A stretch of 64,000 nt of DNA from a virus. How positions within the stretch are numbered: position 1 is the stretch's first letter; each line of letters begins with the position of its first letter. The stretch lies in IMG/VR virus record IMGVR_UViG_3300037130_000236. One strand, 5' to 3'. The position numbers and the translations under genes are program-made. This document shows positions 6,799 through 33,297 of the stretch, piece after piece. Below the pieces are notes generated by a model. The model ran no database searches, was not told where the DNA came from, and saw only the letters and a list, made by a program, of their open reading frames with translations.

Positions 6799-6820
6799 CC
6801 GAATTACCAGTCTGGTCGTG

Positions 6821-7593: not shown

Positions 7594-7600
7594 GTTACAG

Positions 7601-7613
7601 ACTAACCGTTAGT
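7601..7613. promoter_or_regulatory. Operator-like palindrome ACTAACCGTTAGT
   Basis: CTAACNGTTAG core in the gap before the sheath gene. Confidence 0.55.
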
Positions 7614-7645
7614 TTGTTGACCCGAGATCTACGAGGAGAAACAGA

Positions 7646-10391: not shown

Positions 10392-10412
10392 TCGCTTTCC
10401 CTTTCGCTCTCT

Positions 10413-10470
10413 GGGCAGCTTCTGGCTTTGGCTCTTTGTTCTTCTCCGCCATGCTAGAAGCTGCCCTTTT
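10413..10470 (+). terminator. Long-loop terminator/attenuator after the tube gene
   Basis: GGGCAGCTTCT (10413-23) pairs with AGAAGCTGCCC (10456-66), then TTTT. Confidence 0.55.
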
Positions 10471-10478
10471 GTTCAGAT

Positions 10479-11489: not shown

Positions 11490-11498
11490 GGAATCGAA

Positions 11499-12320
11499 GT
11501 GACGATTATCGCCGGCAGTCCGATGGCACCAACGGCAAGTTCCAATGCCGTTCAGCAGCCCCCAGCTCCGGGATCGGCCACTCCGGCTGCGGCGAATGCC
11601 CAGAACACTCCCGGCGGTATCGTCATCCCCTCGCTTGCTCCCAGCTACGAGTGGATCTATCCCAACTCGACGGATGGCAAGTATTTCACTGCCACACAGG
11701 CCCAGATGTACATCGGCAACCTGTTCATCGACGAGTTGGTGAACCTGCAGTTTGCCTATCAGGGCAACCGAATTCCCATGTTTGGGTATTGTTCACGAAG
11801 CGCGGATGCGTTTGGGACCGGCAGGCTTTTGGTACAAGGGCAGATCGCGATTAACTTCGTGACTGAAGGCTACCTGTACACGGTCCTCAAAGAGTTCTCG
11901 AAGATCTACACCCAGCCGGTTCAGGCATCAGCAACAGGACAGGCGGGCGCGCAGATCGCTTCTCTGGTGCAGCAGAGTCAGCAGATCACTAACGCCATGC
12001 AAGGCGCCTTGTCGCCGTCTGCCACCGCAAGCTACCAGGCGCAGTTGAACATCATCAGCCAGCAGATCCAGTCTCTGGCCGCCCAGGGCGGCCCGGACGC
12101 GATCAACGCCGCCAAGCAATCCGCCACTGTTCAGAGCGACACTCCAAACGCGATTGTGCTGAACATCCCGTTCGACATTCACTGCGAACTGACAGGCGCG
12201 GGCCGCACGGTGGAGAGGATTCTCCGCAACTGTCTGCTGATCTCGAACGAGCAGGTTTACGACCAGTCCGGACAGACCCTGCTGGACTGTTATGGCTTCG
12301 TTGCCCGTTCCGCAAACTAA
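11499..12320 (+). CDS. Tail tube paralogue 3 / tube initiator-like
   Basis: YFTATQAQMYIG..DELVNLQF..IPMFGY..GRLLVQGQIAINF tube-like pattern. Confidence 0.6.
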   Translation: MTIIAGSPMAPTASSNAVQQPPAPGSATPAAANAQNTPGGIVIPSLAPSYEWIYPNSTDGKYFTATQAQMYIGNLFIDELVNLQFAYQGNRIPMFGYCSRSADAFGTGRLLVQGQIAINFVTEGYLYTVLKEFSKIYTQPVQASATGQAGAQIASLVQQSQQITNAMQGALSPSATASYQAQLNIISQQIQSLAAQGGPDAINAAKQSATVQSDTPNAIVLNIPFDIHCELTGAGRTVERILRNCLLISNEQVYDQSGQTLLDCYGFVARSAN

Positions 12321-12346
12321 CGACCAACCCTTAGGAGCATCGACTC

Positions 12347-12775
12347 ATGTCCGATCAGATCAGAGAACAACCCCAAATCACCCCTTTCGAGTTCCTCCAT
12401 ACATTCCCGGAGGCTCCGAGCCTGGAGCAGATCGAACAATGGAAGCAGCAGGCGCCAGGCGCGCGCCTCCGTATCTGGCACTCGACGGATGGGAAGCGCG
12501 TTTATGTGCTGCGGGCCATCGGTGGCCAGGAACTGGGGCAACTGCAGGCGAGCCTGCCCCCAAACATCCCGCCAGAGAAGTTGCAGGCCGAGGTCCAGAT
12601 CCTCATGGCGATCCGCTGTTGCGTGTGGACCAGCTCGACCATCGATCACAAGCTGTCCGATCTCGCACTGAAGGGAGCAGGCGCCGGCCTTCCCCAGACG
12701 CTGCAAGAGATCATCTATCAGCTGTCTGACTACATGGACCCGATGGACATCAACCGCTTCAGCGCCGATCTGTAA
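12347..12775 (+). CDS. Putative tail assembly chaperone
   Basis: 142 aa, position after the tube genes, AGGAG RBS. Confidence 0.5.
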   Translation: MSDQIREQPQITPFEFLHTFPEAPSLEQIEQWKQQAPGARLRIWHSTDGKRVYVLRAIGGQELGQLQASLPPNIPPEKLQAEVQILMAIRCCVWTSSTIDHKLSDLALKGAGAGLPQTLQEIIYQLSDYMDPMDINRFSADL

Positions 12776-12783
12776 GGAGCGCC

Positions 12784-13359
12784 ATGCAGGTATTCTTTGC
12801 CCGTTGGCCAAGTGGCCGTAAAGTGAAGTGGCGTTCACTCACCTGGGCAGAGTTCAAGAAGTTTGATCGACAACTCGATTATGACTGCCCGGCTTCCGTC
12901 TACTGCGACGTATACCGGGCAGTTGTGCTTGATGGCCCTCCTCTGGATGGCGATCCTGTTTACCAGGCGCCGGCCGGACTCGTCGAATGGATTGCACGAG
13001 CATTGCTGGACTCGAATCCGTTCAACGGAGAATACAAGGACGTCAAGCGCGCGCTCGAAATGAAGCGCATCGAACTGAAGTCAAGCTGGTTGAACTCCGC
13101 CAAGTCGATCATCGCCGGGATCTTCCGTTACACCTTCGAGGAGATCGAGCAGTGGGATGCGGAGATGTTCTTCGAGCGTCTCGCCTCCGCCGAGTTCGTC
13201 TCTGGGCGCAAGCTCGAGCCGGGAGACCCGGATAAGCTGGATGCCCAGCATCCTGGGAAGAAGCCTGGTCACCCTGAAGGCCCTCCGAAGCCTGCCAAGC
13301 GCGAGCTGAGTCCGGCACAACAGAAGGTTGTCAATCGCGTCGTCAACTCCCGTAAGTAA
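12784..13359 (+). CDS. Putative tail assembly chaperone 2
   Basis: 191 aa, YTFEEIEQW motif, own AGGAG RBS. Confidence 0.45.
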   Translation: MQVFFARWPSGRKVKWRSLTWAEFKKFDRQLDYDCPASVYCDVYRAVVLDGPPLDGDPVYQAPAGLVEWIARALLDSNPFNGEYKDVKRALEMKRIELKSSWLNSAKSIIAGIFRYTFEEIEQWDAEMFFERLASAEFVSGRKLEPGDPDKLDAQHPGKKPGHPEGPPKPAKRELSPAQQKVVNRVVNSRK

Positions 13360-13368: not shown

Positions 13369-16300
13369 GTGCCCTTGGATTCCTCCCAACCCGTGATCGA
13401 AACCACAGCCGGGCGTCCTCGTTTCGCTTCCGACAAATCCTTTCAACTGGAAAGTGAAGAGGCCTACAATCCCTGGGTCCGAGCGATCGGAGTCGGGGTT
13501 GTGGGCACGGCTTTGTATGCCACGCATCGGACGATGCTGGCGACGGTGCCGGAGTATGCCCCGACGCTTCAGAACTGGGCGCAGAAGTTCGAGAATCAGA
13601 CTCCCTTCCACATTGGCCGGACCTTCGCGTTTACCGAACGGCTCTCTTCCTACACAACTCCCGAAGAGTTGAAGTTCACACGGTCGATGCTGACCAACCT
13701 GGACGGGTCGCTCAACGCCGTCGGCGAGACATTCCAACGTCAGTTCAAAGATGCAGGCGTCGATTTCGATGTCCTCCAGCACGTCACCGAAGACAACCCC
13801 TTGCTGTTCAAGGGCCGTCGGCGCGCTGGCTCTGCCTACATGAAACTGGTGGGCCGGGACAGGATCGACTTCGAGACCCGCTTCACTCCATCGGAAGGCC
13901 GTCTCGCTGGCACTGCTTCCCGTCTTGGCCAGAACCTGCACCAGCCGCCCCTCCATTGGTCCACGAATCCCAACTTCCGCGAGCGGATCTGGGAGAACTT
14001 CCAGACCTACAGATCTTCGCAGCGCATCACCAACGCGTCTCCCTGGAGAGAGGCCGCCAAGGATGCTTCTGATCCGAAGTTCCGGCCGTTCCACAGCCGG
14101 GCTCATGTCGAAGGCAATCTGAGTGAGGAGGCTGCGCAGACAGCTCGCAACGTCTGGTCGCGCTTTCAGGTTGAATCTCTCGAAGCAGTAGAGCGCCCTC
14201 AACGGCTCTTTGCCGAAGCAGGTTTCGGTCTCAAGGCAGGCACCTGGAACAAGACCTTCCATCTTCCTTTCGCCGGCGAAGGTGGCATCGTCAACAAGAT
14301 GATCACCAGGCGTGTGCTGCCGATCGCGCTGGCTGCGACCGCCGCAGGCTGGCTGGATTACAAGCTTGGACATCCCAGCGACAAGGTCATCGATCTCGGC
14401 CTCAAGGCCAACGTCCTCCGGGCGGATCTGACAGACATGCTTCCCGGTGGCCGCAAGGTCACCGAATTCTACGAGAATACTGTCCCCGGGCCACAGTACG
14501 GTCCGCTGGCGCTCCCCGCGGCCGGTGCTTTTTCCGGCGGCCTGCTGCACTACTCGCGCGTCGTGCGCGGCCAGTTCGCCACCGAAGATCTCCGCAAAGC
14601 AGGCTCACGCCTTCTGCCGGATGTGAAGGCCCTGCGGACATGGGCCGGCACCAGCGGTAAGAAGCTGGCATCCATCGAAGGCCTGGCTCAGATCTGGAGA
14701 GGTCTGGGCACACCCGGCAGAGGAGCGGCAATTGGTCTGGTGGCAGCGTTGCCCTTCCTGCCTGGAATGCTTGGTTCTCGCAAGACTGGCAACGAGTTGC
14801 GCGATGTCTATTCCGGACTGGACGAGGTTCCAATCCGAAGTGGACGCTGGTGGGAGTTGGGATCAACTCCCTTTGAAGGCGCGCGCATCAAGGCATGGCG
14901 GCCTCACTGGAGCGTCCTGCACAAGAGCCGCGCGGAAGACATCTCGCTGTTCGGATCGGAAGAAGAGAAGTGGAAGCACAACCCGATACTGCATCCACTG
15001 CGCTGGCTGAAGGACCCCTACTACCTCGAAAAACTGCACTACGAGGACCGCCCGTACCCCGTGGCGTCGCCGGCGTTTACCAATTTGCCGCTCATCGGCC
15101 CGTTGCTTGGCGCCACGATCGGCAAGCTGGTCAAGCCGACGATCAGAATGCACGAAGAGGATTGGGATGGCAAGGAGTACACCCTCTACTCGACACGCAT
15201 CGAACCCAAAGGCCCGGAGGCTCTCCCGCCGCCACTGCCGAAGGACGAATTCTCGATCGGCAACGCACTCAAGAAGGAAGCGACGATCTTTGCCGAGTAC
15301 ACCGGACTCTACGGCTTCATTGCCAAGAGTGGCTATCAGGGACTGTTCCCCAACACCAACAGTCTGGGCAAGGAGGTCGACTATCAAGGATCTCGTCAGA
15401 TCGACAACTTCTCTCGTCGTTACTACGAGAAGGAGCTGGGCGCCGGCATTGGTCCGTCCCTCTCAGGCACAGAGCACTTCGGCTATACAGAACCCTTCCG
15501 CCGCTTTGTCCAGCGGGAGAGCTTCTCTCCCCAGGCCAACGAGATCCCCAATACAGCCGCCAGTTGGCTGCCAGGAGATGACTACTACACCAACTTCCAT
15601 GTCGGCGATCCCTTCATCAAGGTCGACCAGGGATTTGCCCGTCTGCCCGGCGCCGGCTACGAAGCCATCCATCCCGAGCTGAAGGGAGTCGATCCAGAAG
15701 ACTACCCCGACATACACAAGATGGCCATCCTGGCCGATGTGGCTCCATACTCACGTGAGTACCACAACGTCAGGCAGCGTGTAGCCCAGCAAGCCAAGGG
15801 CAATACCGAACTGGAGATCGAATACGAAAAGATCATGAACCGGGTCAAACAGACCCGTGAATCGATCATCCGGATGAACGACAGGCACTTCACCGCCCCT
15901 GTCGATGAGATCTCCGGCACCGTGGACGACGTTTCTCCCGGCGGAGTCATCCTCAAGGAGTTTCCCGGCCGGCGCTTCCAGTTCTCCTCCGTGGGCATGA
16001 GTGCGGCAGACCTGTCGGCGCGGATCCTCGGCGAGAACAACAACATGACCCGTAGCGAGGTGGCCCTCGAAGTGGATCGCCGCCGCGGCGCCATGCAGCA
16101 ATATCTGGCCGATCATTTGGCCGAAGGCACCTCGATCCGAGCTGTTGTTCCGAAAGGATCTGCGAGCAATGCAGAGCAGATCCGGGCTGTCATCCTGGCC
16201 AATGGAGAGAACGTCAATCGGGAGCTGATCGACCAGGGGTTTGGTCAGTATCGTGAAGATCTCGGCGGGGCCGAAGCTCGTTCCATGCACGGCAAACTGG

Positions 16301-17382
16301 GGCGCGCCATCGGCGGCGTGGCTGAGGGTCTGGCCTTCCAGGGAGATTCCAGCGCATTGAATCCAATGCGGTATGTGCCATCGCCGGCCCACACCAAGTT
16401 CTGGCAGGAACGCACCCCGCTGGCCCAGTACATCAACAACGAGGTTGCAGGCACCAGGATGCGGCGTTGGGAGCGCCCGATCCACGACTTCCTCATGCCC
16501 TATGCCCGCGGTCTGGTCGAGCGCGTGACCGGCCAAACTGTGCTGCCTGGCGACGTTCAGAAACGCCGGGACCTCAACACTCTGGCCGACGTAATGACCT
16601 ACCTGCGCGATCTGGATGGACGTGCGTCAGGTTCCTATACTAATAAGGGGCAGAGGACATCGATTGGCGCCAACCTGTTTGCTGCGCCGACCTTTGTCGC
16701 TTCCACCCTTCCCGCTCGTGAATCCCACTACTTCCGTGAGTTTCTTGCCGAGACTGATCCGAGCAAGAGAACCCAGATCCTGAAGGTTGCATCCCCAGAG
16801 ATGCAACGCGCTTTGTCTGCCCAATGGGCAGTGCAGAAGTCCCGCATTGCCGAGGTGGAAGGCAAGGATCACGAGGAGATCGGCGAGGGCGGCCGGCTGT
16901 ACGACGAAGCCGACGTTGAAGAGTTCGAGAAGGCTGACACCGGCCTCGACTACGGCAACTGGCTGCGTTCGAAAGAGATCGCGGACTTCTTCTCCCGGAC
17001 TGGATTCGCTCTCCCTGAGCACGGCTTTGAAGCGTTTGAAGAGGCTTTGGATTACCAGGATGTTGAGCTGAAGATAATCCAGCAGGAGGGGTATGACGCA
17101 CACGACTTCAACATCTTCGACGACAGGGCTTCCCTCCTGTGGCGGAAGCCTTACATCGATGGAGCTGTTCGTGAATTGACCAGCGGCGATGATCGTTCTC
17201 CCGACCAGCTTCGGCGTGCGGTGGAACAGATCATGCAGGCAGCCAATGACAAGAAGGCGGACGTTAGAACCTCCGTTCATGCAGGACATGTGAACCACAC
17301 GAATGTTCGCGTGAGCGCCGATATAGATCAGACAGAAGACTTGCTGAGAGATATTCGCCGGAATCCAGAGGATTACCAGTGA
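13369..17382 (+). CDS. Tape-measure-like giant virion protein with degenerate SNase (OB-fold) domain
   Basis: 1337 aa in the tape-measure slot, several Gly/Ala TM-like segments; RAVILANGENVNRELIDQGFG resembles the SNase C-terminal motif. Confidence 0.6.
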   Translation: MPLDSSQPVIETTAGRPRFASDKSFQLESEEAYNPWVRAIGVGVVGTALYATHRTMLATVPEYAPTLQNWAQKFENQTPFHIGRTFAFTERLSSYTTPEELKFTRSMLTNLDGSLNAVGETFQRQFKDAGVDFDVLQHVTEDNPLLFKGRRRAGSAYMKLVGRDRIDFETRFTPSEGRLAGTASRLGQNLHQPPLHWSTNPNFRERIWENFQTYRSSQRITNASPWREAAKDASDPKFRPFHSRAHVEGNLSEEAAQTARNVWSRFQVESLEAVERPQRLFAEAGFGLKAGTWNKTFHLPFAGEGGIVNKMITRRVLPIALAATAAGWLDYKLGHPSDKVIDLGLKANVLRADLTDMLPGGRKVTEFYENTVPGPQYGPLALPAAGAFSGGLLHYSRVVRGQFATEDLRKAGSRLLPDVKALRTWAGTSGKKLASIEGLAQIWRGLGTPGRGAAIGLVAALPFLPGMLGSRKTGNELRDVYSGLDEVPIRSGRWWELGSTPFEGARIKAWRPHWSVLHKSRAEDISLFGSEEEKWKHNPILHPLRWLKDPYYLEKLHYEDRPYPVASPAFTNLPLIGPLLGATIGKLVKPTIRMHEEDWDGKEYTLYSTRIEPKGPEALPPPLPKDEFSIGNALKKEATIFAEYTGLYGFIAKSGYQGLFPNTNSLGKEVDYQGSRQIDNFSRRYYEKELGAGIGPSLSGTEHFGYTEPFRRFVQRESFSPQANEIPNTAASWLPGDDYYTNFHVGDPFIKVDQGFARLPGAGYEAIHPELKGVDPEDYPDIHKMAILADVAPYSREYHNVRQRVAQQAKGNTELEIEYEKIMNRVKQTRESIIRMNDRHFTAPVDEISGTVDDVSPGGVILKEFPGRRFQFSSVGMSAADLSARILGENNNMTRSEVALEVDRRRGAMQQYLADHLAEGTSIRAVVPKGSASNAEQIRAVILANGENVNRELIDQGFGQYREDLGGAEARSMHGKLGRAIGGVAEGLAFQGDSSALNPMRYVPSPAHTKFWQERTPLAQYINNEVAGTRMRRWERPIHDFLMPYARGLVERVTGQTVLPGDVQKRRDLNTLADVMTYLRDLDGRASGSYTNKGQRTSIGANLFAAPTFVASTLPARESHYFREFLAETDPSKRTQILKVASPEMQRALSAQWAVQKSRIAEVEGKDHEEIGEGGRLYDEADVEEFEKADTGLDYGNWLRSKEIADFFSRTGFALPEHGFEAFEEALDYQDVELKIIQQEGYDAHDFNIFDDRASLLWRKPYIDGAVRELTSGDDRSPDQLRRAVEQIMQAANDKKADVRTSVHAGHVNHTNVRVSADIDQTEDLLRDIRRNPEDYQ

Positions 17383-17410
17383 TGCAAGTAAACCGTTCCT
17401 ATGTGGTCGA

Positions 17411-17547
17411 ATGAGGCTTTGGTAGATCCCTGCCAACAGGGAGACTCGTAACAGCCTCATCGGCCCCTGCCGGGCGGATCAAAACCTGGACTTCCACCCA
17501 AGCACACTCGTCCTCGTGCTCCTCGCCTTGATCGGAAGCATCCGCCC
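17411..17547 (+). ncRNA. Structured intergenic/leader RNA (two nested stem-loops) before the RNAP-like gene
   Basis: ATGAGGCT/AGCCTCAT enclosing TCCCTG-ccaa-CAGGGA; GGGCGGAT/ATCCGCCC enclosing CTTCC/GGAAG and AGCAC/GTGCT. Confidence 0.4.
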
Positions 17548-17559
17548 AACCCCCTTCCT

Positions 17560-20500
17560 GTGACCCTTATGGACCCTCGTGACTTCTTCAAGAACCTGAC
17601 CGGCGTTTACGGCTGGGCTGCAGAACGGCCTGGTCTGATGTTCGGCGCCGGCGCGGCCGCATTGGCTGCGCCCCTGTTCATGAAGAACGACGAACGGGGC
17701 TACTTCAAGACATCCACCATGACGACGCCGGCGATTGTCGCCGCGGCCATGGTGGCGCCCCGCCTTATCCCTACGGCGGTCAGCGAAGGCAAGCGGCTTA
17801 TCGATGTCGTCAAGCAGGTTCCCACGGACTACGGGTTCCGCGATGGAGTTTACCAGGCCGCCACCGGAGCAGTGAACATCGCCGCGCTGCGCAGCGCCTA
17901 TGAAGAAGGCCGCATCTCGATCAATGAATACCTCGCCGGACAGAGTCGCTTCTATTCCGGCCTTCCCATTGAGGAGATCACCAGCAACCAGGTCGAGCGT
18001 GAGTTCTCCGCCTTGACCTCACATTTCAATCGCCTCTACGAAGACCCGACCAAGCATCGCCTCCTGGAGAACGCGCTCTTTCACGCCCAACTGAAGCAGT
18101 CGGGCGCTGCCGACAAGCTGGGCTGGCAGGGCCTGACGGCCGTGGCGCCAACGATGACGGCGAACGAAATGAGCGACATCATCGACGCCAACTCCAAGGA
18201 CATCGATTGGATCAGGGAGATGAACTTCCGGCTCCGTGAGGCATCCGGAGCCAAGGTTGCCGGCGAAGGTGCTGTCGTTCCCCAGCTCAAAGATCTGACG
18301 TCCGCCAATGCCGAGTTCATGACATCTGAAAGCTATGCCGGTCGTGGGCGCGCTTTGCTTGAAGAGCAACATGCTGCCCTGGCTCAAGAGATCGATGCCC
18401 TGCTGGGAGACAAGGCCGCAGTCAAGCAGTACGGCTACCGTGCCGAGAACATCGAGGTCATCACTCTGCCGGCCGGACGGAACCGACCGATCAACGAGAT
18501 CGTTGGACTGCGTATCGACGGCGACCTGACCATCCCTGTCATCGATGGCAACGGTGGCATCAGACTGGGAAGCTCCTTCGAGAACTCAGGCGTCTCCCGC
18601 TTCTTCATGCAGCACGGCGGCGATGTCAGCGCCGATGTTTACGGCGTGCGCGGCCTCCGCTATGGGAAAGACTTCGTGCGCGGCGAGCTGAGCCGGGCTC
18701 AGTTCGTTGTCGGCCGTGATCCTCTCAACGGCAACCCTTTCCAGGCCGAAGATGCCGGTGTCGCCCAGGCAACCCGCCGCCAGCAGCAGTTCTACAGCAA
18801 CCAAGGTGTCTTTGCCGATATGCCTGGGTCTTTCCCCGTGGACGGCGAGGACCGCGGTGTTTGGAGTCGGATGCGCCCGGAGCGCAAGGTTGCAGAGATC
18901 ACCCACCAGGTTGATTCCGGCGGCAAGATACGCACCACGGGCGGCACGAAGATCGACACCCTGGAACGGGAGGAAACCCGGCTCATCGAGCCCATGGGTG
19001 TTCACAACCGTGAGAAGGAAAGCCTGCGCATCAAGTCGATGAACAAGTCGATTTGGGCGGAAGTGGCCGAAGGCCATGCCGGTTTCTCCGCGACGGATTA
19101 CACCGACCTTCCGGAGTTTGGCGTTCGTTCCCTCCAGATCACTCCCAGCCAACGCGCGCTGTTCGGCGACCTGCCTGAGTGGGAGCAGGTTGCAGGCGCT
19201 GGTTTCGATTCCAGGCTGGCACTCGAAGATTCAGCGCGGGCCCTTTCGCTCGATATGGCCCTCAGCAAGATCGGCGCGAAGCAGCGGGCGGTCGGCTATA
19301 TCGCCAAGGACGCCGGCGTCAACGAGATGATTGCGACAGACATGTGGGATAAGCTCCTGCCTTTCCTGTCCAACCGGAAGAACTACGAAGCAATGCGCAA
19401 TGTCGGCTACATCGGCGAGGGCGCGCGCATCATGAAGAAGAACGTGGGCGCCGAGGCTGTGCGCCATGTGAACTACGTCGTTCACGAGAACATGCTGTCC
19501 GAGGACCTCCTCAAGGGAGGGACGTTTGGGCGCGATCAGGTTCTCGGAATGAAGTACGGCACCTCCATGTTTGCCCAGGGCGACAGCAACCGCATCATCA
19601 ACCACTCGGTCAACGAGGCGGACGGAACGATCCTCCTCCAGGTTGAAGAGCGTCTGGTCGTCCAGGGGATGAAGACCCACAACCTGGGCAAGCAGACCGT
19701 TAGTCGCGCGCTCGAAGACGTCGAGATGGAGCGGGTGATCCGCGGCTTCAACAACTACTTCAGGGTCTCAGGACAGGGCGGCGCTGTGGCCGATGAAGTC
19801 GACAGCGTGGTTCTGGAACAGTTCAACAGCGCCAAGGCGAACAATCCGCTGCAGGTTCTCAACGACTCCCTGGGCGATACGTTCCGCCGGCTTGACGGTA
19901 TCTACGGCGCTGGCAACACGCCTGCCTTTCTGACCGAAGCAAAGTTCTCCGGCCGCAGCCATTTGGATCGCCTGGCCGAGCTGGGCTATTCCTACGAGAA
20001 TGGTCGCCTGATCACGCACACCGGCAATCTGCGCAACCTTCAAGGGTCGGCCGCCGATTACACCCAGGCCGCCGATTACATCCGCGACCTGATGGACGAG
20101 GTCGGGGCGCGCATCAAGAGCAAGCAGATCGCTGGCGATCGGTTCATGGAAAGCTATATCGACTGGTCGTTTAAGCATGAGGACGGAACCTACCTCGAAT
20201 ACCTGATGCAGCGGGCGCTGCCTGAGTCCATGAGCGTGTCGGATCACATGGCACTCAACCACGCTTCCCGTGTCGGTATCACCCGCGATGCTCTCCAGCA
20301 GATGTCTCTGGCCGGGGAACATGAAACGGCGCGCGAGATCCTGAGCCGACTCGAAACGGATGGCTCTACAGGCATGACCTGGGATTTCATGCAACACACC
20401 GATCCCAGTGTGCGCGACTTCTCGAAGCCGTTTGGGGACGCCAGCATCTCGATCGATGAAGCAGTGGGCGACAGCCTGATCGACAGGCTGGGCACTGCCG

Positions 20501-22599
20501 AAGGCCGCGTCACGAAAGCGACCGGGCCTGACGGCAAAGTCGGGATCAGACCGACGATCTTCGACCCAGCTCACGACCTGGCGCAGAGGAACTACTCAAT
20601 CAAAGCGAGTGTCGCCGGCAAGGACTACTTCATTCCGGTCCTTGGACGCGAGGCATACGGCGGCAAGGCCAATGCTCACGACCTGATGGGCTACTCGGCG
20701 AATAAGTGGGAGAACGAGCTGCGCAACGTGTTGCAGACCGCCAACGATGTGAACGAGGGCTTCGGCACCAAGATTCCCTTCGAGGACGTACTCGCCAACT
20801 ATGTTCAGAAGGTCCGGGAATCCTACGGCGTCGGCAAGGAAGGTGTTTGGAGAGCTCCGACGATTGATCCCTTGGGATTCGAGGGCCGGGCGACTGCGCG
20901 TGCGTCAACACTGCGCTACGCCGACGGCTCTGTCAATCCCTTCGAGATTGGTGTCGGCGAAGAGTATCTGGACCTGATGTCCAAGGAGCATGCCGAGATC
21001 CTGCGCGGCGGCGGCCGCGTGCAGGCCGTATCTGTCCGGCATCCCATCAATGCCGTGGTCATGGCCGATGTGAGATACGATCCGAATCTCAACGGCTCAT
21101 GGCAGGTCGGCGCCGATCCGGTGATGCAGCGCATGATGCGCATGGACGCCGACGGCGACCGGCTGTCGTTCCACATGGCAAACACCCAGGCCGTGAAGTG
21201 GGCAGAGGACGTTGCCGATCCGGCTGCTCTCCAAGGTGAGCGCGCGGCAGAGTATGCCCGCTGGCAAAGGTTCTCAGAACAGATCAACAATCCGGAAAGC
21301 CTGCAAGGCAGGCTCGGAGCCTTCCGCCGCGTCTTTGAAGGCGACGAATTGAACCCTCGTGAATACGTGAAGGGTTCGATGACGGACGTGTTCTCCAACG
21401 TCAGGAAGTTCGCGGGAAGGGATCTCCGCAAAGCGATTCAGGCCCGTACCGCCGCGGCCGACGTGGGCATGCTGTCGAATACCTTCGACCAGCTCGAAAC
21501 CTCGATGGCTCACAACGATCTTTTCCGCGATCCGTTCGAGAAGCTGATCACCCATGAGTTCTCTTACGACATCGTGCGCGAAGCATCGATCGCCGCGGCA
21601 AAGCTGAAGGGCGGCGGAGCGTACCAGGATCTGACCACCCTGATGGCATGGAACAACTCTCTTCGCTCGGCGCTCAATGACCGTAGCGAAAAGGGCATGA
21701 ACCGGTTCATCACCGCCATGACGGAGGGCGCACAGAACTTCGGCAAAGAGATCGCGGTCAACGATGCCCAGAAGGCATTCTTCAAGATTGCCGACGAGAC
21801 CGCAGAGATCAATCCGTACCTTGAGTTCGCGCAGCAACGGCGCGACCTGTTGGAGAAGCTGTGGCGAGGCCACGACTCCACGGTCAGCGAGATCCAGCAG
21901 ATCATGACCGTGACTGGCGAGAATGCTGCGAAGTACGCGAGGCGCGACATCGTCACCCTGTTCAACAATCAGGTGCCTGCGGTACAGGCATTTGCCCACC
22001 GGGGCGCCAGTGACTACTCGGCTGCCACTCTGGGTGCGGAAAACGCCCGTACGGCCGCCGGGAAGTTCGCTCAGAAGACAGGCCGGGCCGCCGAGGGCGT
22101 CTTCAACCAGGCAGCTCGCTCTGTCGAAGAGGTCGTGCAGGCGGCGCGCGGGACCGGCGCAATGAAGGCACTCGGCATTGGAGCGGCCGTCGCAGTTGGA
22201 TCTGGCATCCTGTTCGGCTCCTTGCGCAGTCCTCGAAAGGGACAGGCATTGGCTCCCTCCGGGAACCGTTTCCGCCCAGAAGAGAAGATCGGCGTCGATG
22301 GTCATGTTCCAGGAGAACCTGAGACTGGGGTTATGGCGCCTGCCAACCCTCCTCGTAGAATCAGGCCCGCCCAGGGCGGTGTACGAACCGCAGTCGTCGC
22401 GCCGATCGGTCGCACGACGGAGCTTGAAGTCCACATGCGGGCGGATGATCGCGGAAGGGCTGCAGAAGCCTCGAAGATAGCGACCCGTCTGGCAGCTCCA
22501 GCAGGCAACTCCCACGTCTCGATCACCTACCGAGACACTACGCGCCTTGACAGCTTGCGGACCAAAGAACGGATCCGCGAGGCAATGGACGAGAGATAA
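17560..22599 (+). CDS. Candidate single-chain two-barrel (beta/beta-prime-like) DNA-dependent RNA polymerase with tape-measure-like termini
   Basis: Motifs GYIGEG (616-621), GMKTHNLGKQTV (K705, K711), GKEGVWR (1092), RHP (R1160), DADGDRLSFH (D1196/D1198/D1200); hydrophobic N- and C-terminal segments. Confidence 0.75.
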   Translation: MTLMDPRDFFKNLTGVYGWAAERPGLMFGAGAAALAAPLFMKNDERGYFKTSTMTTPAIVAAAMVAPRLIPTAVSEGKRLIDVVKQVPTDYGFRDGVYQAATGAVNIAALRSAYEEGRISINEYLAGQSRFYSGLPIEEITSNQVEREFSALTSHFNRLYEDPTKHRLLENALFHAQLKQSGAADKLGWQGLTAVAPTMTANEMSDIIDANSKDIDWIREMNFRLREASGAKVAGEGAVVPQLKDLTSANAEFMTSESYAGRGRALLEEQHAALAQEIDALLGDKAAVKQYGYRAENIEVITLPAGRNRPINEIVGLRIDGDLTIPVIDGNGGIRLGSSFENSGVSRFFMQHGGDVSADVYGVRGLRYGKDFVRGELSRAQFVVGRDPLNGNPFQAEDAGVAQATRRQQQFYSNQGVFADMPGSFPVDGEDRGVWSRMRPERKVAEITHQVDSGGKIRTTGGTKIDTLEREETRLIEPMGVHNREKESLRIKSMNKSIWAEVAEGHAGFSATDYTDLPEFGVRSLQITPSQRALFGDLPEWEQVAGAGFDSRLALEDSARALSLDMALSKIGAKQRAVGYIAKDAGVNEMIATDMWDKLLPFLSNRKNYEAMRNVGYIGEGARIMKKNVGAEAVRHVNYVVHENMLSEDLLKGGTFGRDQVLGMKYGTSMFAQGDSNRIINHSVNEADGTILLQVEERLVVQGMKTHNLGKQTVSRALEDVEMERVIRGFNNYFRVSGQGGAVADEVDSVVLEQFNSAKANNPLQVLNDSLGDTFRRLDGIYGAGNTPAFLTEAKFSGRSHLDRLAELGYSYENGRLITHTGNLRNLQGSAADYTQAADYIRDLMDEVGARIKSKQIAGDRFMESYIDWSFKHEDGTYLEYLMQRALPESMSVSDHMALNHASRVGITRDALQQMSLAGEHETAREILSRLETDGSTGMTWDFMQHTDPSVRDFSKPFGDASISIDEAVGDSLIDRLGTAEGRVTKATGPDGKVGIRPTIFDPAHDLAQRNYSIKASVAGKDYFIPVLGREAYGGKANAHDLMGYSANKWENELRNVLQTANDVNEGFGTKIPFEDVLANYVQKVRESYGVGKEGVWRAPTIDPLGFEGRATARASTLRYADGSVNPFEIGVGEEYLDLMSKEHAEILRGGGRVQAVSVRHPINAVVMADVRYDPNLNGSWQVGADPVMQRMMRMDADGDRLSFHMANTQAVKWAEDVADPAALQGERAAEYARWQRFSEQINNPESLQGRLGAFRRVFEGDELNPREYVKGSMTDVFSNVRKFAGRDLRKAIQARTAAADVGMLSNTFDQLETSMAHNDLFRDPFEKLITHEFSYDIVREASIAAAKLKGGGAYQDLTTLMAWNNSLRSALNDRSEKGMNRFITAMTEGAQNFGKEIAVNDAQKAFFKIADETAEINPYLEFAQQRRDLLEKLWRGHDSTVSEIQQIMTVTGENAAKYARRDIVTLFNNQVPAVQAFAHRGASDYSAATLGAENARTAAGKFAQKTGRAAEGVFNQAARSVEEVVQAARGTGAMKALGIGAAVAVGSGILFGSLRSPRKGQALAPSGNRFRPEEKIGVDGHVPGEPETGVMAPANPPRRIRPAQGGVRTAVVAPIGRTTELEVHMRADDRGRAAEASKIATRLAAPAGNSHVSITYRDTTRLDSLRTKERIREAMDER

Positions 22600-22601: not shown

Positions 22602-25600
22602 ATGAGCGTCATCACCACCGAAAAGGATTACAGCACGAACAACCCACTCGATGCGGGCTACTTCCGCGTCGGGTTTGTCACCCTGCAGATCCCACCACAG
22701 GACATTGTGACCTCGCGTGTTGTGAACAACGAGAAGATCACGCCTCTCCGCGGCATGAACGAGATGTTCCAGAAGACGGGGCAAGCTCGCTGGGATGTGA
22801 CCGTGAGTTGGACGGCACTGTTGAATGACGCCGATCAGGTCACCAGGTATCAGCAGTGGGAAGACCTTCGCAATATGGTCGCCATCTTCAAGGCTGCTCC
22901 TTTCGTGGAGGTGGAGTCTCCGCACCTGCGCCAGATGCTGGCTGCTCATGATCCGGAGTTCTCCACCAGACGCCTCTCGATGGGCCTCCGCCAGCTTCGC
23001 GTCGACAACCATCCAGATGTCATCGACGCACTCAAGGTCACCCTGACGATGACCTACTTCAACTGCCTGCCCTATACCCAGGACTTCGGATACCAAGGTG
23101 ATTCCGGACAGAGTGTAAGTGCTTACCAGTCACAGAAGTTCAAGAAGTACATTTCCCAGTGGCGCCAGATCAACATGGAGCGGGCATTCCGCTACCCAGG
23201 AGACCCGATCTGCCCCTTGTGGCTGGCCCAGAATCCTGGCGAACTGGCTCTCAAGTGGAGGACCTACCTTCCAATACAATCTGGGCAAGTACCGGACTAC
23301 GCCGGCCAGCTCAACGCACCGGCGACCATCGGCGGAACGGTTGTTCCATCCACGGTGACGCCGAAGGCTCCGAAGGGGAAGGTTGCGCTTCCGCCTGCAA
23401 TCGCTCAGCTCATTCAGCAGATCGCACCGCAGTTTGGTCTTGACCCTGCAATAATGCAAGGAATCTGCTGGTACGAAAGCAAAGGCAATCCCAACGCCAA
23501 GAGTCCAAACTCGACTGCCACAGGTCTCTTTCAACTGCTCAATGGAACTGCAAAGGCCATGGGAGTCACAAACTCCTATGACCCGACCCAGAATACAACC
23601 GGGGCCTGCAAACTCATGTCCCAGCTGTATCGTCAGTTCGGATCGTACGAGCTTGCCATAGCTGCTTACAATGCAGGATCTGCTTACGTCAAGTGCTATC
23701 TGAACGGAACCAGTCAGACCTTGAAAAGTGGTGTAGTTATCAATCCAGGCAAGCAGATGACAGGCGGGATTCCTCCAGCAGGTGTTCCTGCAGGCGAGAA
23801 CGTGCCAAAGTACATCTCGACGGTCATGAGTATCGCTCAGTCCTCGTTTGGGTACAACGGCACCGCCACGTCCACAACCCCAACCGTAGCGCCCGGCCCT
23901 GCGCCGGCAACGAATGCAACGACACCGGCCAGCTCAGGGTCAAACCCGACAACTTCGACCAGTTCGAGCACCGAAGCTGCCTTTGAAGCACAGGTGAACA
24001 ACCTTGTGGCTCAAGGCTGGAGTGTCGATCACCGGGCCGATCCCGGTGGCGTCGGCGTTCTCTTCCTGTACAAGGAGAACGAACTTCGGGTTGCTCCTCA
24101 AGACTCCAATTCAGGAGGCGTGCAACCGGGCCTCTGGCCGGAAGGCATCTCGGTTCTCTTCGTCAACAACCTCGCGCAGATCCCGCTGGCTGGCTTCCAG
24201 TATCCGACCTACCAGCACGTCGGGCCCTGCAGCTCTCTTGTGCAGGTGTCATTCGGTTCCCAGGGGACGCGCGACAATCCGAACACGGACGAGCCGATCC
24301 ACAACGGTCTGATGACCCTGACCTCGATGGCTCATATGCTGGAGCAGCAGTACCAGCGCCTGCGCACGCAATTCCGTTCGATCGCATCGGTTCACAGGAT
24401 GCACGCGGTCTATGTCGAGAACCAGGTTCTGAATATGCTCGGTATCTTCGGGCTGATGCTCGATCAGGTGACCACCGAGACAGTGCCTGATTCCTCGGAT
24501 ATGGCCATGGCCCAACTCACGGCCTGCCAGTACGAGAACAAGTTCGAAGAACTCACCTCCTACAAAGTCAACGCGATCGACGGCGTCTACATGACTGCCC
24601 TGCAACAGACGGTGTTGCAGGGAGACACGCTTGCCCAGGCGGCAACGGCGGCGTCGCCTGATGAGAGGGCACTGATGGGTGCGGCCTTCACCTATCGCCA
24701 GCACATGGCCAGCTCCGACGAGAACGACATGAGCGCCCGGCTTCTCAATGCAGCCGAAAACCCCTCTGACTCGTCGCCCTTCGGATTCATGAACGGAGCC
24801 CAGTCATTCTTTGTCAGCGAAACAGATGCGGATGCGCTGACGAACGAGTTTATGGAAAAGTCTTCCAGTTACCCGGTCGCCGCGGCGCGCGTGAAGCAGC
24901 TTCAGCAGTCGGGCAATACAACGCAGTGGACGATGGCCGATTACCTGATGTTCAAGTCCTGCGCTTATGACGCAGCGGGAACTGGCGCCATCACATCCCT
25001 CGTATCGAGCATCGATCAGGGTCTGGCGGCCGACACCGATCTGAGCCGGCAGAAGATGGTCAGCGATGTGTATTCGCGGCTCTTTCCCTACTTCGCGGAG
25101 AACGATCCGAGCCTGCGCAACGCCCTGAACCAGATCATGCAGAGTCCAACGCTCGGCGCGAGCATCAAGAACTCCGTCTCTGCAAGCGACCCCGCCCTCT
25201 CGAATGCCGATCATGGGGCCTACCGCGACATGGGCCTGAACAGTCAGGTCCTCGATGGCGAAGACTTCAACCCCGGGATGTACTTCACCAGCGACAAGAC
25301 GACCTATCTGGCCAAGACGAGGACAGCCCTCGGGAACATCACGGCACAGATTGCCTCAGGTTCAAGTCAACTGAACAGCGACAGCAACGGATACCAGGTT
25401 CCTGCGGGAACGATTCCTCTGTCCACGACGACCTCGATTCCCGGCAACATGGACTCGATCATGAAGATGATCAATGTTCCTGGTTACAGCATGACCGAGG
25501 CATTCCCGACCTTCAAGCTGTTCTTTATGGAGGACGCCAACAGTGGCATCTATTACGCATTCGACAACTTCTACAGCTACAGTGCGGTGATCGACATCGA

Positions 25601-28148
25601 GGTACAGCGGCCAACCAACAAGCCGGCGACCCTCCGCATGAAGCTGATGAATCTCACTCACCTGTTGAGCCACAAGCTCTATGATGCTTCGCTGGCCGGC
25701 AAGTGGGAGGCATCGCTCGACAGATTCGCCATCAGCACAGGCGGCACGGCTGCGGCCACAGGCTCGGATGTTCCCACCAAAGGATTCGTCGGACGGAACG
25801 GCATCGGTGGCGCGCCTTATCAGATCATGGGCAAGGACAACACCGAAGGCTACGCCGGTGGCGACATGTCCAACCGCAGGATTCCGCTTCAATACTTTCC
25901 TCTTCAGACGGGCAGTAAGATCCAGCTTCGTGTGGGGTTCTCCAACAATCCGGACAAGCTGACACCTGTCTTCTGTGGCGAGGTCACCGACATCGAGGGC
26001 AACGAGATCCTGACTGTCACTGCCCAGAGCTACCTGCTTGAGCTTGCGTCCTTGAGCGGTGACAAGATGAACTCGAACTCATGGTTCCAGCTCGGATCGC
26101 TGCTTCAGAACACGGTCAACATCCTGATACCGGGATCGGGTGGCGGCATGTCCAAAGGGCCTGCCTACGGAGGCGTCACCATCTTCGGCGATGCCGGCGA
26201 TGTGGGCACGGTGATCTGGATGATGCTCAAGAACTCCGGAGCCAAGCACTTCGGTCACTGGCAGGTAAACAGTCCTGCCAATTCCTTGCTCAAGGGCTTT
26301 TCATGGAAGGAGCTGGCCGCCGCGCCGGCCGCCGGCGCCGCCAGTATTGCCGGTATGGACAACGTGGCCACCGCGCTTCAGAACGTCTACGACCGGTGCG
26401 ACGAGAACATCATGGTCGATACGGCCGTTCAGTATGACGGGACGTCGGTCAGCACGGACCCCAAGACCCACTCTCAATCCCGGAGCTGGATGGATCAGCG
26501 GAAGTATCCCTGGGCACCGGCATCCTACTATGTCGATTCCAAGACCACGTTGACGGTGTGGGAACTCATTCAGGACATCGCCAGACGGTATCCGGAATAC
26601 CTGCTGCTCGAGAAGTGGTACGGTTTCCCTTACAGCTGTGACGCGACCCTGGTCTTTGGCCATCCCTTCGACTGGTACACAGCAAGGCCTCAGATGCTCG
26701 GCGACACGGAACGTGTGCGCGCGCTGAACCAGAACAACCAGGCATACACCCAGTGGTGGAATGCGAGCGGCAAGCAGATGTTCCTCGATGTCATGGGGGA
26801 CGGCACCATGCCTGTCACCGTGGCTCTCTACAAGAACCAGCTGCTCCAACAAGCAGGCGCGAGTCCGTCTGGGCTTGCCGCGGCACTTCAGTCGCTGTTG
26901 ACGATCGCGGTGGATGGTGTCGATACGGGTTCACAGACTGCCAACGATTGGCTGGCTCTTCCTGGCAAGCTCATCTACACCATCATCCCCGGAGAACGGG
27001 AGGCTCTTCGAAATCTCCAGAAGAAGATCAACGCAGTGCAGAGCGCGTACTACGCTTCCATCCTGGCCGGGGATCAGAAGTCGACCGACTTCCTGAAGCC
27101 GGTGCGTCGCTACCACTTCATCGACCATCAGTCCATCGTGCATAACGGGATGAGGGTCAACGACAAGATATACAACTGCATCCGCATCGGCGATCCGGAG
27201 AAGAACGGCAAGACCTATCCCATCCTGGCCAACGCCAGCATTCCTCCCAACCATGTGCGCGCGCTTGATGTCACAGACCAGATCAACGATCCCAAGCAGA
27301 ATGTGATCGACCAATCCCTTTCCGGCAACACCGGGCTGATCATGGCCTACGGCCAGAGCTTCCTGAGGGAAGAGTTGGGCAAGATGTACCGGGGCGAGAT
27401 CGTGCTGCGCTGCATTCCCGAGATCGAACCGCAAGACGTTCTTCTCATCACCGATCCGTCCACAGGGATGGTCGGGCCGGTCGAGGTCGAGACCGTCACC
27501 CACGTCATGAACCTGGAATCGGGATTCATCACCATCATCAAGCCGCGCGCAGTCATCACGATCAACGAAGCGGCATCGGCCAATTTCTTCCGAATGCTGA
27601 TGATGGCTATGGGAACCGTGATCCCGGAGATCCACCGTCTGAGCAATCTCTCCGTCTACTCATGGATGGAAGGAGCAGCCGTCGCCACAACCACGGCGGT
27701 CGGCGCCGGTGCGGTGGTGGCCGGATTGAGCTACGCAGGCGGCGCAGTGGCCACAGCAGCGGAAGGCACCGGTTTGGTGGCTATCGCTGCAGGTGCAACG
27801 ACTGAGTGGGCGGCTGCCGGCGCGGCCTTCCTTTGTGGCCCTCCGGGTTGGATCATCCTGGGCCTCTGCGCGATCGCGGCGGTCGGCGCCGCGGTCTGGT
27901 GGTTCACCGACAGCACAGCCAAGCTGAACCCCGTCGTGATCTGCCCTTGCACCAAGTTCGGGCGGCCGTGGGTCGGCGGCATCGAGGGCTGGTCCATCAA
28001 CGACCTGGTGGGCGTGGTGAACAATAAGGCGATGCAGTTTGTGGCCGACGAGATCTTCCCGCTGATCGATGCCTGGAAGGCCTTCCACGGCTACCCGACC
28101 CAGATTCCTCCCACTCCCCAGCCTTCCTGGGGTCTGTCTGCTCCATAA
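22602..28148 (+). CDS. Baseplate hub / tail lysin fusion: SLT lytic transglycosylase + gp27/late-control-D-like hub + C-terminal TM hairpin
   Basis: ICWYES (E292)..ATGLFQL..AIAAYNAG SLT motifs; MYRGEIVLRCIPEIEPQD..VETVTHVM..GFITII hub motif. Confidence 0.8.
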   Translation: MSVITTEKDYSTNNPLDAGYFRVGFVTLQIPPQDIVTSRVVNNEKITPLRGMNEMFQKTGQARWDVTVSWTALLNDADQVTRYQQWEDLRNMVAIFKAAPFVEVESPHLRQMLAAHDPEFSTRRLSMGLRQLRVDNHPDVIDALKVTLTMTYFNCLPYTQDFGYQGDSGQSVSAYQSQKFKKYISQWRQINMERAFRYPGDPICPLWLAQNPGELALKWRTYLPIQSGQVPDYAGQLNAPATIGGTVVPSTVTPKAPKGKVALPPAIAQLIQQIAPQFGLDPAIMQGICWYESKGNPNAKSPNSTATGLFQLLNGTAKAMGVTNSYDPTQNTTGACKLMSQLYRQFGSYELAIAAYNAGSAYVKCYLNGTSQTLKSGVVINPGKQMTGGIPPAGVPAGENVPKYISTVMSIAQSSFGYNGTATSTTPTVAPGPAPATNATTPASSGSNPTTSTSSSTEAAFEAQVNNLVAQGWSVDHRADPGGVGVLFLYKENELRVAPQDSNSGGVQPGLWPEGISVLFVNNLAQIPLAGFQYPTYQHVGPCSSLVQVSFGSQGTRDNPNTDEPIHNGLMTLTSMAHMLEQQYQRLRTQFRSIASVHRMHAVYVENQVLNMLGIFGLMLDQVTTETVPDSSDMAMAQLTACQYENKFEELTSYKVNAIDGVYMTALQQTVLQGDTLAQAATAASPDERALMGAAFTYRQHMASSDENDMSARLLNAAENPSDSSPFGFMNGAQSFFVSETDADALTNEFMEKSSSYPVAAARVKQLQQSGNTTQWTMADYLMFKSCAYDAAGTGAITSLVSSIDQGLAADTDLSRQKMVSDVYSRLFPYFAENDPSLRNALNQIMQSPTLGASIKNSVSASDPALSNADHGAYRDMGLNSQVLDGEDFNPGMYFTSDKTTYLAKTRTALGNITAQIASGSSQLNSDSNGYQVPAGTIPLSTTTSIPGNMDSIMKMINVPGYSMTEAFPTFKLFFMEDANSGIYYAFDNFYSYSAVIDIEVQRPTNKPATLRMKLMNLTHLLSHKLYDASLAGKWEASLDRFAISTGGTAAATGSDVPTKGFVGRNGIGGAPYQIMGKDNTEGYAGGDMSNRRIPLQYFPLQTGSKIQLRVGFSNNPDKLTPVFCGEVTDIEGNEILTVTAQSYLLELASLSGDKMNSNSWFQLGSLLQNTVNILIPGSGGGMSKGPAYGGVTIFGDAGDVGTVIWMMLKNSGAKHFGHWQVNSPANSLLKGFSWKELAAAPAAGAASIAGMDNVATALQNVYDRCDENIMVDTAVQYDGTSVSTDPKTHSQSRSWMDQRKYPWAPASYYVDSKTTLTVWELIQDIARRYPEYLLLEKWYGFPYSCDATLVFGHPFDWYTARPQMLGDTERVRALNQNNQAYTQWWNASGKQMFLDVMGDGTMPVTVALYKNQLLQQAGASPSGLAAALQSLLTIAVDGVDTGSQTANDWLALPGKLIYTIIPGEREALRNLQKKINAVQSAYYASILAGDQKSTDFLKPVRRYHFIDHQSIVHNGMRVNDKIYNCIRIGDPEKNGKTYPILANASIPPNHVRALDVTDQINDPKQNVIDQSLSGNTGLIMAYGQSFLREELGKMYRGEIVLRCIPEIEPQDVLLITDPSTGMVGPVEVETVTHVMNLESGFITIIKPRAVITINEAASANFFRMLMMAMGTVIPEIHRLSNLSVYSWMEGAAVATTTAVGAGAVVAGLSYAGGAVATAAEGTGLVAIAAGATTEWAAAGAAFLCGPPGWIILGLCAIAAVGAAVWWFTDSTAKLNPVVICPCTKFGRPWVGGIEGWSINDLVGVVNNKAMQFVADEIFPLIDAWKAFHGYPTQIPPTPQPSWGLSAP

Positions 28149-33284: not shown

Positions 33285-33297
33285 TTCCTATACTAGA
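33285..33297 (+). promoter_or_regulatory. Putative late-promoter motif TTCCTATACTAGA
   Basis: Same core as 4128/6821; 5 nt before ATG 33303, at the right edge of the cargo island. Confidence 0.6.

Follow-up and report, generated by a model that had tools for sequence, protein, structure and literature searches.

Phages known to inject a polymerase comprise N4-like phages (T7-type enzyme), crAss-like phages, jumbo phiKZ-like phages (multisubunit enzyme) and one lineage of Thermus siphoviruses, in which the enzyme is fused to the tape measure protein; genes of virion polymerases sit inside late structural operons. A phage that injects its own polymerase can begin its programme independently of the host enzyme and get around host-directed defences. 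In the Thermus lineage, gp96 of P23-45 (also of P74-26, G20c and TSP4) is a virion two-barrel RNA polymerase (RNAP) fused to the tail tape measure protein (PDB 8H2M/8H2N; Chaban et al. 2024, PMC10770324), and the association of an RNAP with a tape measure was called 'previously unsuspected' in that paper (PMC10770324). Our literature search found no later paper extending tape-measure-linked RNAPs to contractile-tailed phages. Here we describe gene P0001 of the IMG/VR virus record IMGVR_UViG_3300037130_000236, of which a stretch of 64,000 nucleotides (nt) was analyzed (hereafter, the window). Its product is predicted, from modeling and conserved motifs, to be a very divergent single-polypeptide two-barrel (beta/beta'-type) nucleotide polymerase, and the gene lies in the tail block of a temperate, contractile-tailed phage. 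The closest published case is P23-45 gp96, and the arrangement has been published so far only for that unrelated long-tailed Thermus lineage.

P0001 occupies the open reading frame (ORF) 17560–22599 on the plus strand, which is uninterrupted for 1679 codons in both the ORF list and the translation. An earlier note made from this sequence had proposed the polymerase reading, and every motif that it named was located by script at the residue or base it had given: NVGYIGEGARIM at amino acids (aa) 614–625, KGGTFGRDQVLG at aa 652–663, QGMKTHNLGKQTVSR at aa 702–716 (holding K705 and K711), GKEGVWR at aa 1092–1098 and SVRHP at aa 1158–1162, which includes R1160. Its count of the spacing between this arginine and the first aspartate of DADGD was also borne out, with 36 residues from R1160 to D1196 in P0001 and 35 in the beta' of bacterial genome G001; across the P0001 family the spacing ranges from 35 to 38, with a mode of 36. 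In relatives the N-terminus is an MDP... methionine equivalent to ATG 17569, three codons inside the called start, and the true N-terminus of P0001 is probably this one; no Shine-Dalgarno sequence precedes either candidate start (GTG 17560 or ATG 17569). The parts of the gene are as follows.

17560–22599, plus strand: P0001, whole gene, 1679 aa (GTG start at 17560; ATG at 17569 is the likelier start).
17629–17769, plus strand: N-terminal Gly/Ala-rich hydrophobic stretch with a conserved R46-G-Y...T55-T-P57 block, aa 24–70.
19402–19719, plus strand: beta-like double-psi beta-barrel (DPBB), aa ~615–720, with G619, E620, G663, K705 and K711 (from the predicted model and conservation).
Within the beta-like barrel, aa ~636–698 of P0001: possible hybrid-barrel insert.
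19720–20832, plus strand: inter-barrel region, aa 721–1091, helices and strands mixed (from the secondary structure of the model).
20833–21177, plus strand: beta'-like catalytic DPBB, aa 1092–1206, with G1092-K1093...R1098, R1160-x-P1162 and D1196-x-D1198-G-D1200.
21145–21159, plus strand: DADGD, candidate Mg2+-binding aspartate triad, aa 1196–1200 (located by script; DxDxD in every full-length family member).
21235–21609, plus strand: helical region 3' of the catalytic barrel, aa ~1226–1350, with R1296, G1303, S1306, N1307, I1344 and K1348 conserved.
22159–22224, plus strand: C-terminal membrane-like segment, aa 1534–1555 (the Kyte-Doolittle 19-residue window peaks at 1.85).
22225–22596, plus strand: C-terminal tail domain of ~120 aa, aa 1556–1679, the best-conserved stretch of the family.

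Ordinary searches did not recognize P0001. Pfam gave no match even at E≤1, neither PHROGs, NCBIfam nor phmmer/hmmsearch against PDB chain sequences matched it, and tblastn of its core against 50,697 GenBank phage records returned nothing. A word-indexed search found only five relatives (42–98% identity). By contrast, an exhaustive HMMER search, with a profile made from the aligned aa 550–1320 region of P0001 and its relatives from three fetched loci, yielded 69 sequences, each representing a cluster at 50% identity. Of these, 62 scored E≤1e-10, and lengths were mostly 1,500–1,750 aa. No member of the family turned up in a sample of 401 Acidobacteriota genomes, which does not prove absence.

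The invariant positions of this family lie in the proposed active site. The earlier note would have counted a lack of DADGD conservation among homologues as a refutation; DxDxD stands at the equivalent position in every full-length member. In an alignment of 60 sequences with 20% mean column identity, the aspartate triad was invariant (60/60), and the invariant positions were G1092, P1162, D1196, D1198 and D1200 only; relatives that keep the triad, G1092 and P1162 go down to 17% identity. Five invariant columns at this mean identity indicate that the motifs are not due to chance. A second alignment, of 51 full-length representatives, revealed high conservation in the first barrel (G619, 100%; E620, 88%; G663, 98%; K705, 94%; K711, 88%) and around the catalytic loop (K1093, 98%; R1098, 94%; R1160, 96%). 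The consensus of the family in the triad region is GK-x4-R, RHP and AD-x-D-x-D, compared with GKQGRFR, NRAP and NADFDGD in bacterial beta'. Two-barrel polymerases are defined by a DxDxD triad from one DPBB and two basic residues from the other, forming a single catalytic core (PMC7824862); the conserved K705 and K711 together with D1196, D1198 and D1200 match the residues required by this definition (PMC7824862).

At the level of profile alignment the likeness to known polymerases was faint. A single hhalign match of the family to P23-45 gp96 (aa 327–1124) placed RHP...DADGD on RNP...DFDGD (weak; E 0.025, 69 columns, probability 1.9%), and a single match to the bacterial beta' segment placed DADGD on NADFDGD at the catalytic loop (weak; E 0.029, probability <2%); gp64 of P23-45 and the bacterial beta segment gave no meaningful alignment. 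P0001 is a structural and motif-level relative of Rpb1/Rpb2 that lies outside the Pfam sequence families PF00623 and PF00562, whose gathering thresholds it does not reach.

An AlphaFold2 model of aa 590–1360, built from the 60-sequence alignment, had a mean predicted local distance difference test score (pLDDT) of 90.4 and a predicted template modeling score (pTM) of 0.87; it replaced a model from four sequences only, with a pLDDT of 51. In the numbering of the model, residues 515–619 correspond to aa 1104–1208 and residue ~360 to aa ~949, and a strand-rich block at residues 33–129 forms the first barrel region. Foldseek against PDB gave 91 matches at E≤1e-3, the top one being the beta' of phage AR9, and the best 50 of the 91 were all RNAP beta'/Rpb1-type chains. 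VIA-align, run against 48,161 representative chains and then against Foldseek's best 1,000, gave 349 chains at Z≥8. The principal polymerase matches are listed below.

QDE-1: VIA-align Z 11.5–11.6, root-mean-square deviation (rmsd) 3.8–3.9, 271 residues aligned; model residues 26–771, both barrels.
Maize RDR2: Z 10.9; both barrels.
P23-45 gp64 and P74-26 gp62: Z 10.1–10.4 (gp64, 10.4; gp62, 10.1–10.2), rmsd ~4.2 over ~240 residues; both barrels.
Largest subunits of Pol I (A190), Pol II (Rpb1), vaccinia virus and ASFV: Z 9.3–9.9; from model residue ~360 onward.
P23-45 gp96: Z 7.3–7.6; model residues 26–771.
crAss-like phi14:2 gp66: Z 6.5, 316 residues aligned; model residues 29–771.

The single-chain two-barrel enzymes align to the model from residue 26–29 onward, and the non-virion RNAP (nvRNAP) of phiKZ matched at Z 7.7. 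Isolated and designed DPBB domains fitted model residues 515–619 with an rmsd of 2.2–2.3 over 85–86 residues. The best match in ESM-Atlas was a cluster of ~900-aa viral proteins carrying PF00562 (Rpb2_6) and PF00623 (Rpb1_2), with a template modeling (TM) score of 0.51 over 490 aligned residues (query 23–683). A search of BFVD returned four structural relatives (TM 0.3–0.48) and then many viral RNAP large subunits, with chunks of crAss-like proteins also among the matches; the top one is annotated as a 'minor tail protein' and comes from an uncultured siphovirus, another has no name, and Microcystis phage MaMV-DC and Acinetobacter phage ME3 each contribute an uncharacterised protein. The two-barrel fold that the earlier note had predicted is present in the AlphaFold2 model, and two-barrel polymerases were the top structural matches over both barrels. 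On this computed model, P0001 has the two double-psi barrels that place a protein in the two-barrel polymerase superfamily.

It is very improbable, in our judgment, that the resemblance is spurious and that P0001 contains double-psi barrels without being a polymerase. Every sequence library searched failed to recognize it, its structure is a prediction, and one barrel is also matched, at Z 6–9, by isolated DPBBs from AAA ATPases, expansins and formate dehydrogenase subunits. However, these unrelated matches span ~85–110 residues, as against 240–350 residues over both barrels for polymerases, the best 50 of the 91 Foldseek matches are all RNAP largest subunits, and the invariant residues are exactly the polymerase signature.

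In the predicted core (aa ~615–1350), the beta-like barrel would contribute K705 and K711, and the beta'-like barrel the Mg2+-binding D1196, D1198 and D1200, with the catalytic loop shaped by R1160, P1162, G1092, K1093 and R1098. The assignment of K705 and K711 as the two basic residues of the first barrel follows their position in its strand block of the model, and the putative equivalences to E. coli beta residues E813 and K1065/K1073 rest on conservation and fold rather than on residue-level superposition. A hybrid-motif-like segment claimed in the earlier note received faint support, the DUF2118 barrel 3d4r falling weakly on model residues 47–109 (Z 6.0). The inter-barrel region keeps T908, D910, G919, G935, N1011, P1026 and G1029 in the 51-sequence alignment. 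The region following the catalytic barrel forms long helices at model residues 637–759 with positions conserved at 94–100% in the same alignment, and is a candidate equivalent of the bridge helix.

The chemistry of P0001 is most likely that of a DNA-dependent RNAP. Among solved structures, RNA-dependent polymerases lie closest (QDE-1, Z 11.5; RDR2, Z 10.9), and row 6 of the ESM-Atlas search is a cluster named 'RNA dependent RNA polymerase domain-containing protein'. Both observations would suit a protein that is mainly structural, a tape measure or channel former acting in the tail or in ejection, with a two-barrel module that is either otherwise catalytic (RNA-templated synthesis, priming or nucleotidyl transfer) or a scaffold. 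The same could be said of the conservation profile, in which the C-terminal tail and not the polymerase is the best-conserved part, and of a weak match (E 0.014) of the 60-sequence profile against PDB chain sequences, which paired the N-terminal region with the coiled coil of an M23 peptidase chain and hints at a long helical, tape-measure-like segment. We nevertheless consider such a role quite improbable: the invariance of the three aspartates, G1092 and P1162 down to 17% identity argues for retained catalysis, the phage single-chain enzymes that share these structural neighbors (gp64, gp96 and gp66) are DNA-dependent RNAPs (PMC10770324), and PolD-type DNA polymerases were absent among the VIA-align matches listed.

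The core is set between an N-terminal region of ~600 aa and a C-terminal membrane-like segment followed by the conserved tail domain. The earlier note had described Gly/Ala-rich, transmembrane-like flanks on both sides. This held for the C-terminal side, where aa 1534–1555 is the sole clearly membrane-like segment in a simple hydropathy scan and contains G1541 and G1549, conserved in the 51-sequence alignment. The N-terminal stretch stayed below the hydropathy threshold of 1.5, and its membrane insertion is uncertain; the R46-G-Y...T55-T-P57 block within it is 80–90% conserved in the 51 full-length relatives. Mean column conservation was ~0.5 for aa 1551–1679 compared with 0.2–0.48 elsewhere, the polymerase core included, and the conserved C-terminal ~120 residues may serve as an assembly or anchoring signal.

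P0001 is the second of three giant genes that lie between the sheath/tube genes and the baseplate, and the computed gene order around it is as follows.

7646–9577, plus strand: tail sheath gene, marker of a contractile tail (phrog_16991, 1.3e-37).
9696–13359: five ORFs without informative matches.
13369–17382, plus strand: P0002, upstream giant partner, 1337 aa, no family match.
22602–28148, plus strand: P0003, downstream giant partner, 1848 aa, with an SLT lytic transglycosylase domain at aa 270–370 (PF01464, 3.6e-20).
35259–36461, plus strand: Baseplate J-like gene, downstream limit of the region (PF04865, 1.7e-18).

Two small conserved ORFs (145 and 191 aa) directly precede P0002, which found no family match in the libraries and for which an ESM-Atlas feature search gave nothing usable. 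P0003 has PHROG tail-lysin matches and, by hydropathy, C-terminal membrane-like segments. P0001 shares no segment with P0002 or P0003, and none of the three giants was called a tape measure by any library searched. The location between tube chaperones and a baseplate hub, as the earlier note had it, was supported as regards the sheath, SLT and Baseplate_J genes, whereas no library recognized the chaperones or the hub. Likewise, the tape-measure position that it proposed stands in so far as P0001 lies within the contractile-tail module, and fails in that it is the second giant, with P0002 directly behind the two small ORFs.

This arrangement is shared by relatives. The common order consists of the sheath, a ~235-aa and a ~325-aa gene, variable genes, a ~146-aa and a ~180-aa gene, giant 1, the polymerase, giant 3, three small genes and a ~400-aa baseplate J gene, and all six relatives' loci match whatever part of it their contig covers, to a profile E of 1e-16. 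A giant-1-type gene occupies the same place in 5/5 of the loci that reach upstream of the polymerase gene, and the SLT domain of giant 3 was recorded in the window and in the relatives L001 and L003. In four of the six relatives' loci a ClpB-like AAA+ gene (~350 aa; AAA_2, ClpB_D2-small) lies between giant 1 and the polymerase, at these positions.

L001, 8796–9869: ClpB-like AAA+ gene.
L003, 219–1301: ClpB-like AAA+ gene.
L019, 8762–9850: ClpB-like AAA+ gene.
L020, 8355–9398: ClpB-like AAA+ gene.

No such gene was found anywhere in the window, where its slot is taken by a 177-nt spacer (17383–17559). The ClpB-like protein may act as an unfoldase or loader for the giant proteins. In the distant relative L020, the giant-1 homologue (4221–8339) has DUF559 and MTES_1575 endonuclease-like Pfam domains, which hints that giant 1 can also carry a nucleic-acid enzyme.

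Other observations concern the rest of the tail block and its surroundings. Between P0003 and the baseplate genes, the segment 28222–33191 has a guanine-cytosine content of 0.51–0.54 compared with ~0.59, and holds two minus-strand genes, one of them encoding a WG-repeat protein (30740–32419; PF14903, 3.6e-70); since relatives L001 and L021 go from giant 3 directly to a ~200-aa gene, this segment is an accessory island that was inserted here. An endonuclease VII/HNH-like gene at 33913–34485 (phrog_2633, 4e-30), placed among the small genes near the baseplate, is probably a homing-type insertion. A 1,101-aa ORF at 39145–42450 contains an ILEI domain (PF15711, 2.2e-07), unusual for a phage tail block. 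A 1,686-aa ORF at 52917–57977, downstream of the baseplate genes, was considered as a paralogue of P0001 and rejected as unrelated; from its position alone, we would guess at a tail fibre.

The phage is temperate and acidobacterial, as the earlier note had supposed. The window ends in an integrase gene, of four near-identical records IMG/VR lists three as provirus, and a 98% identical copy lies within a 3.26-Mb chromosome contig of an Acidobacteriaceae metagenome-assembled genome.

62798–64000, plus strand: integrase, running off the end of the window (phrog_1, 1.1e-55).

CheckV-type completeness values of the related IMG/VR records (G003–G006) were 38% for 82 kb, 46% for 99 kb and 83% for 178 kb; from these figures a genome of ~215 kb is expected, possibly that of a jumbo-sized temperate phage. 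Against this expectation, a promoter-like motif was restricted to ~85 kb of the 178-kb record.

This motif, TATACTAGA, has four exact copies in the window (4134–4142, 6827–6835, 33289–33297 and 57987–57995, plus strand), in the longer context TTCC-TATACTAGA-CAG. All four sites are intergenic and on the coding strand, and three lie just ahead of structural or other plus-strand gene blocks. The 10-mer CTATACTAGA has four exact copies in the window, and the related 178-kb record G005 has seven, all on the same strand. TTCC-TATACTAGA-CAG (CTATACTAGA, TTCCTATACTAGACAG) is a candidate promoter of structural operons, for the host RNAP or for a phage polymerase; it contains a -10-like TATACT, which makes a host promoter equally possible.

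In one rival reading, P0001 is an active two-barrel RNAP of non-virion, YonO-like type, made in the infected or induced cell and transcribing late or structural operons, perhaps from CTATACTAGA. The fold and active-site evidence is the same for an enzyme of this kind, fused viral RNAPs of ~900 aa make up the top ESM-Atlas cluster, SPbeta is likewise a temperate phage, and CTATACTAGA is strand-specific, intergenic and mostly upstream of plus-strand gene blocks. In addition, searches of the four related viral records (38–83% complete) with PF00623, PF00562, PF00940 and PF04542 brought up neither a canonical RNAP gene nor a sigma gene; divergent enzymes can be missed by these profiles and the PF00940 control matched nowhere, so that absence is not established. 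We nonetheless regard a non-virion enzyme as unlikely. A late polymerase whose gene sits midway through the operon that it must transcribe faces a bootstrapping problem, and a soluble enzyme would have no use for ~900 extra residues, a membrane-like segment or a strongly conserved C-terminal tail. Linkage to the tail block and to two other giants, one of them a cell-wall lysin, is strict across the family, and the motif with its TATACT could be a host -10-type promoter.

We instead favor, as a probable explanation, that P0001 is a virion-carried polymerase, ejected together with the SLT lysin and giant 1 and transcribing the incoming DNA. P0001 would be expressed along with the tail genes as the middle one of three giants, the third bearing the peptidoglycan-cutting SLT domain; the three are, we infer, virion components located in the tail lumen or at the head-tail junction and ejected at sheath contraction. 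The ejected polymerase would then transcribe entering DNA at the envelope, making the first transcripts independently of the host, and might also help draw the genome in, as has been suggested for gp96. Late structural-gene expression, large non-catalytic flanks and a membrane-like anchor fit a packaged enzyme better than a soluble one; the gene order around P0001 is shared by its relatives, the top structural match in BFVD is annotated as a minor tail protein, and the tape-measure-fused gp96 provides a precedent (PMC10770324).

Several points weigh against a virion-carried polymerase. The phage is temperate and no injected enzyme is available after prophage induction, so early genes cannot depend on P0001 alone. 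If CTATACTAGA, at the heads of structural operons, were the promoter of P0001, the enzyme would act late rather than early. A folded core of ~85 kDa cannot occupy the lumen of the tail tube unless unfolded, and P0002, not P0001, lies directly behind the two small ORFs (putative tail chaperones), with no giant identified as a tape measure by a library. Sequence-level likeness to any known RNAP is not significant on its own (hhalign E 0.025–0.029). The closest solved structures are the RNA-dependent QDE-1 and RDR2, so the template of P0001 may be DNA or RNA.

A more elaborate version, which we offer tentatively and hold as doubtful, is a three-protein ejection set in the tails of temperate contractile phages, consisting of giant 1 (nuclease-like in some), the polymerase and the SLT lysin. 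The adjacent ClpB-like AAA+ protein would help loading in many of them, and upon contraction the C-terminal anchor would bring the polymerase to the inner membrane, where it would serve as first transcriptase and genome-reeling motor. Such a set would follow the logic of the N4/T7-like ejectosome, would have arisen independently in myovirus-type virions, and would be dispensable on prophage induction.

With P0001, cell-type polymerases of a single chain reach the tail block of temperate acidobacterial soil phages with contractile tails. Its family, with at least 69 clusters at 50% identity and recognized by no annotation library, adds very divergent branches of two-barrel polymerases, and raises the question of what use an injected polymerase is to a phage for which the prophage is another starting point. 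Two phages with BFVD matches, Microcystis MaMV-DC and Acinetobacter ME3, are in culture and might serve for experiments.

Comparison with known systems places P0001 among several single-chain enzymes without coinciding with any. Its top structural neighbors overall, QDE-1 and RDR2 (PDB 7Y7P, 2J7N, 7W82; Z 10.9–11.6, both barrels), are also structural neighbors of other phage single-chain RNAPs; they are cellular RNA-silencing enzymes that use RNA or single-stranded DNA templates, have no virion or tail context and show ~10–13% aligned identity to P0001. The best structural match from a phage is the non-virion single-chain RNAP gp64/gp62 (PDB 8F72, 8F5M), a soluble early-gene product of ~600 aa that, unlike P0001, has no flanking regions or membrane-like segments. 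The fused viral RNAPs of the ESM-Atlas cluster are recognized by Pfam, whereas P0001 is not. YonO of the Bacillus prophage SPbeta resembles P0001 in having both barrels in a single polypeptide and in belonging to a temperate phage. Forrest et al. 2017 reportedly described YonO-type proteins as ~800–900 aa long, encoded outside the tail genes and not virion proteins. P0001, in contrast, has 1,679 aa with ~900 extra residues, carries a membrane-like segment and lies in the tail block in every relative examined, which sets it apart from a compact soluble enzyme.

Among virion enzymes, gp66 of crAss-like phi14:2 (PDB 6VR4) is a giant two-barrel RNAP of one chain, which the virion carries and ejects into the host, and its fold matches that predicted for P0001; gp66 differs in being head-packaged cargo of a podovirus-like virion, in its length of 2,180 aa and in belonging to a different lineage of virulent phages. 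The jumbo myoviruses phiKZ and AR9 are, like the P0001 phage, contractile-tailed and equipped with cell-type RNAPs, but theirs have four or five subunits and are head-packaged in virulent phages, whereas P0001 is one chain from the tail block of a temperate phage. P0001 and gp96 are alike in having a single-chain two-barrel core with DxDGD that is undetectable by ordinary RNAP sequence similarity, and in being encoded in a tail-gene block with membrane-like segments. They show no significant sequence homology, and the structural match of gp96 has a lower Z than those of gp64 or QDE-1. The presence in the virion and the activity of gp96 are proven, whereas those of P0001 are predicted; P23-45 has a second polymerase, gp64, and none was identified for the P0001 phage in the four related records with Pfam profiles only. 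gp96 has 5,002 aa and comes from a siphovirus, whose tail is non-contractile; its polymerase is N-terminal, and it includes a metallopeptidase domain. P0001 has 1,679 aa, a central polymerase and no peptidase, is one of three separate giant genes, and belongs to a contractile-tailed, temperate, acidobacterial phage. P0001 thus differs from gp96 in phage type, in architecture (central core, no peptidase, three giants) and in sequence.

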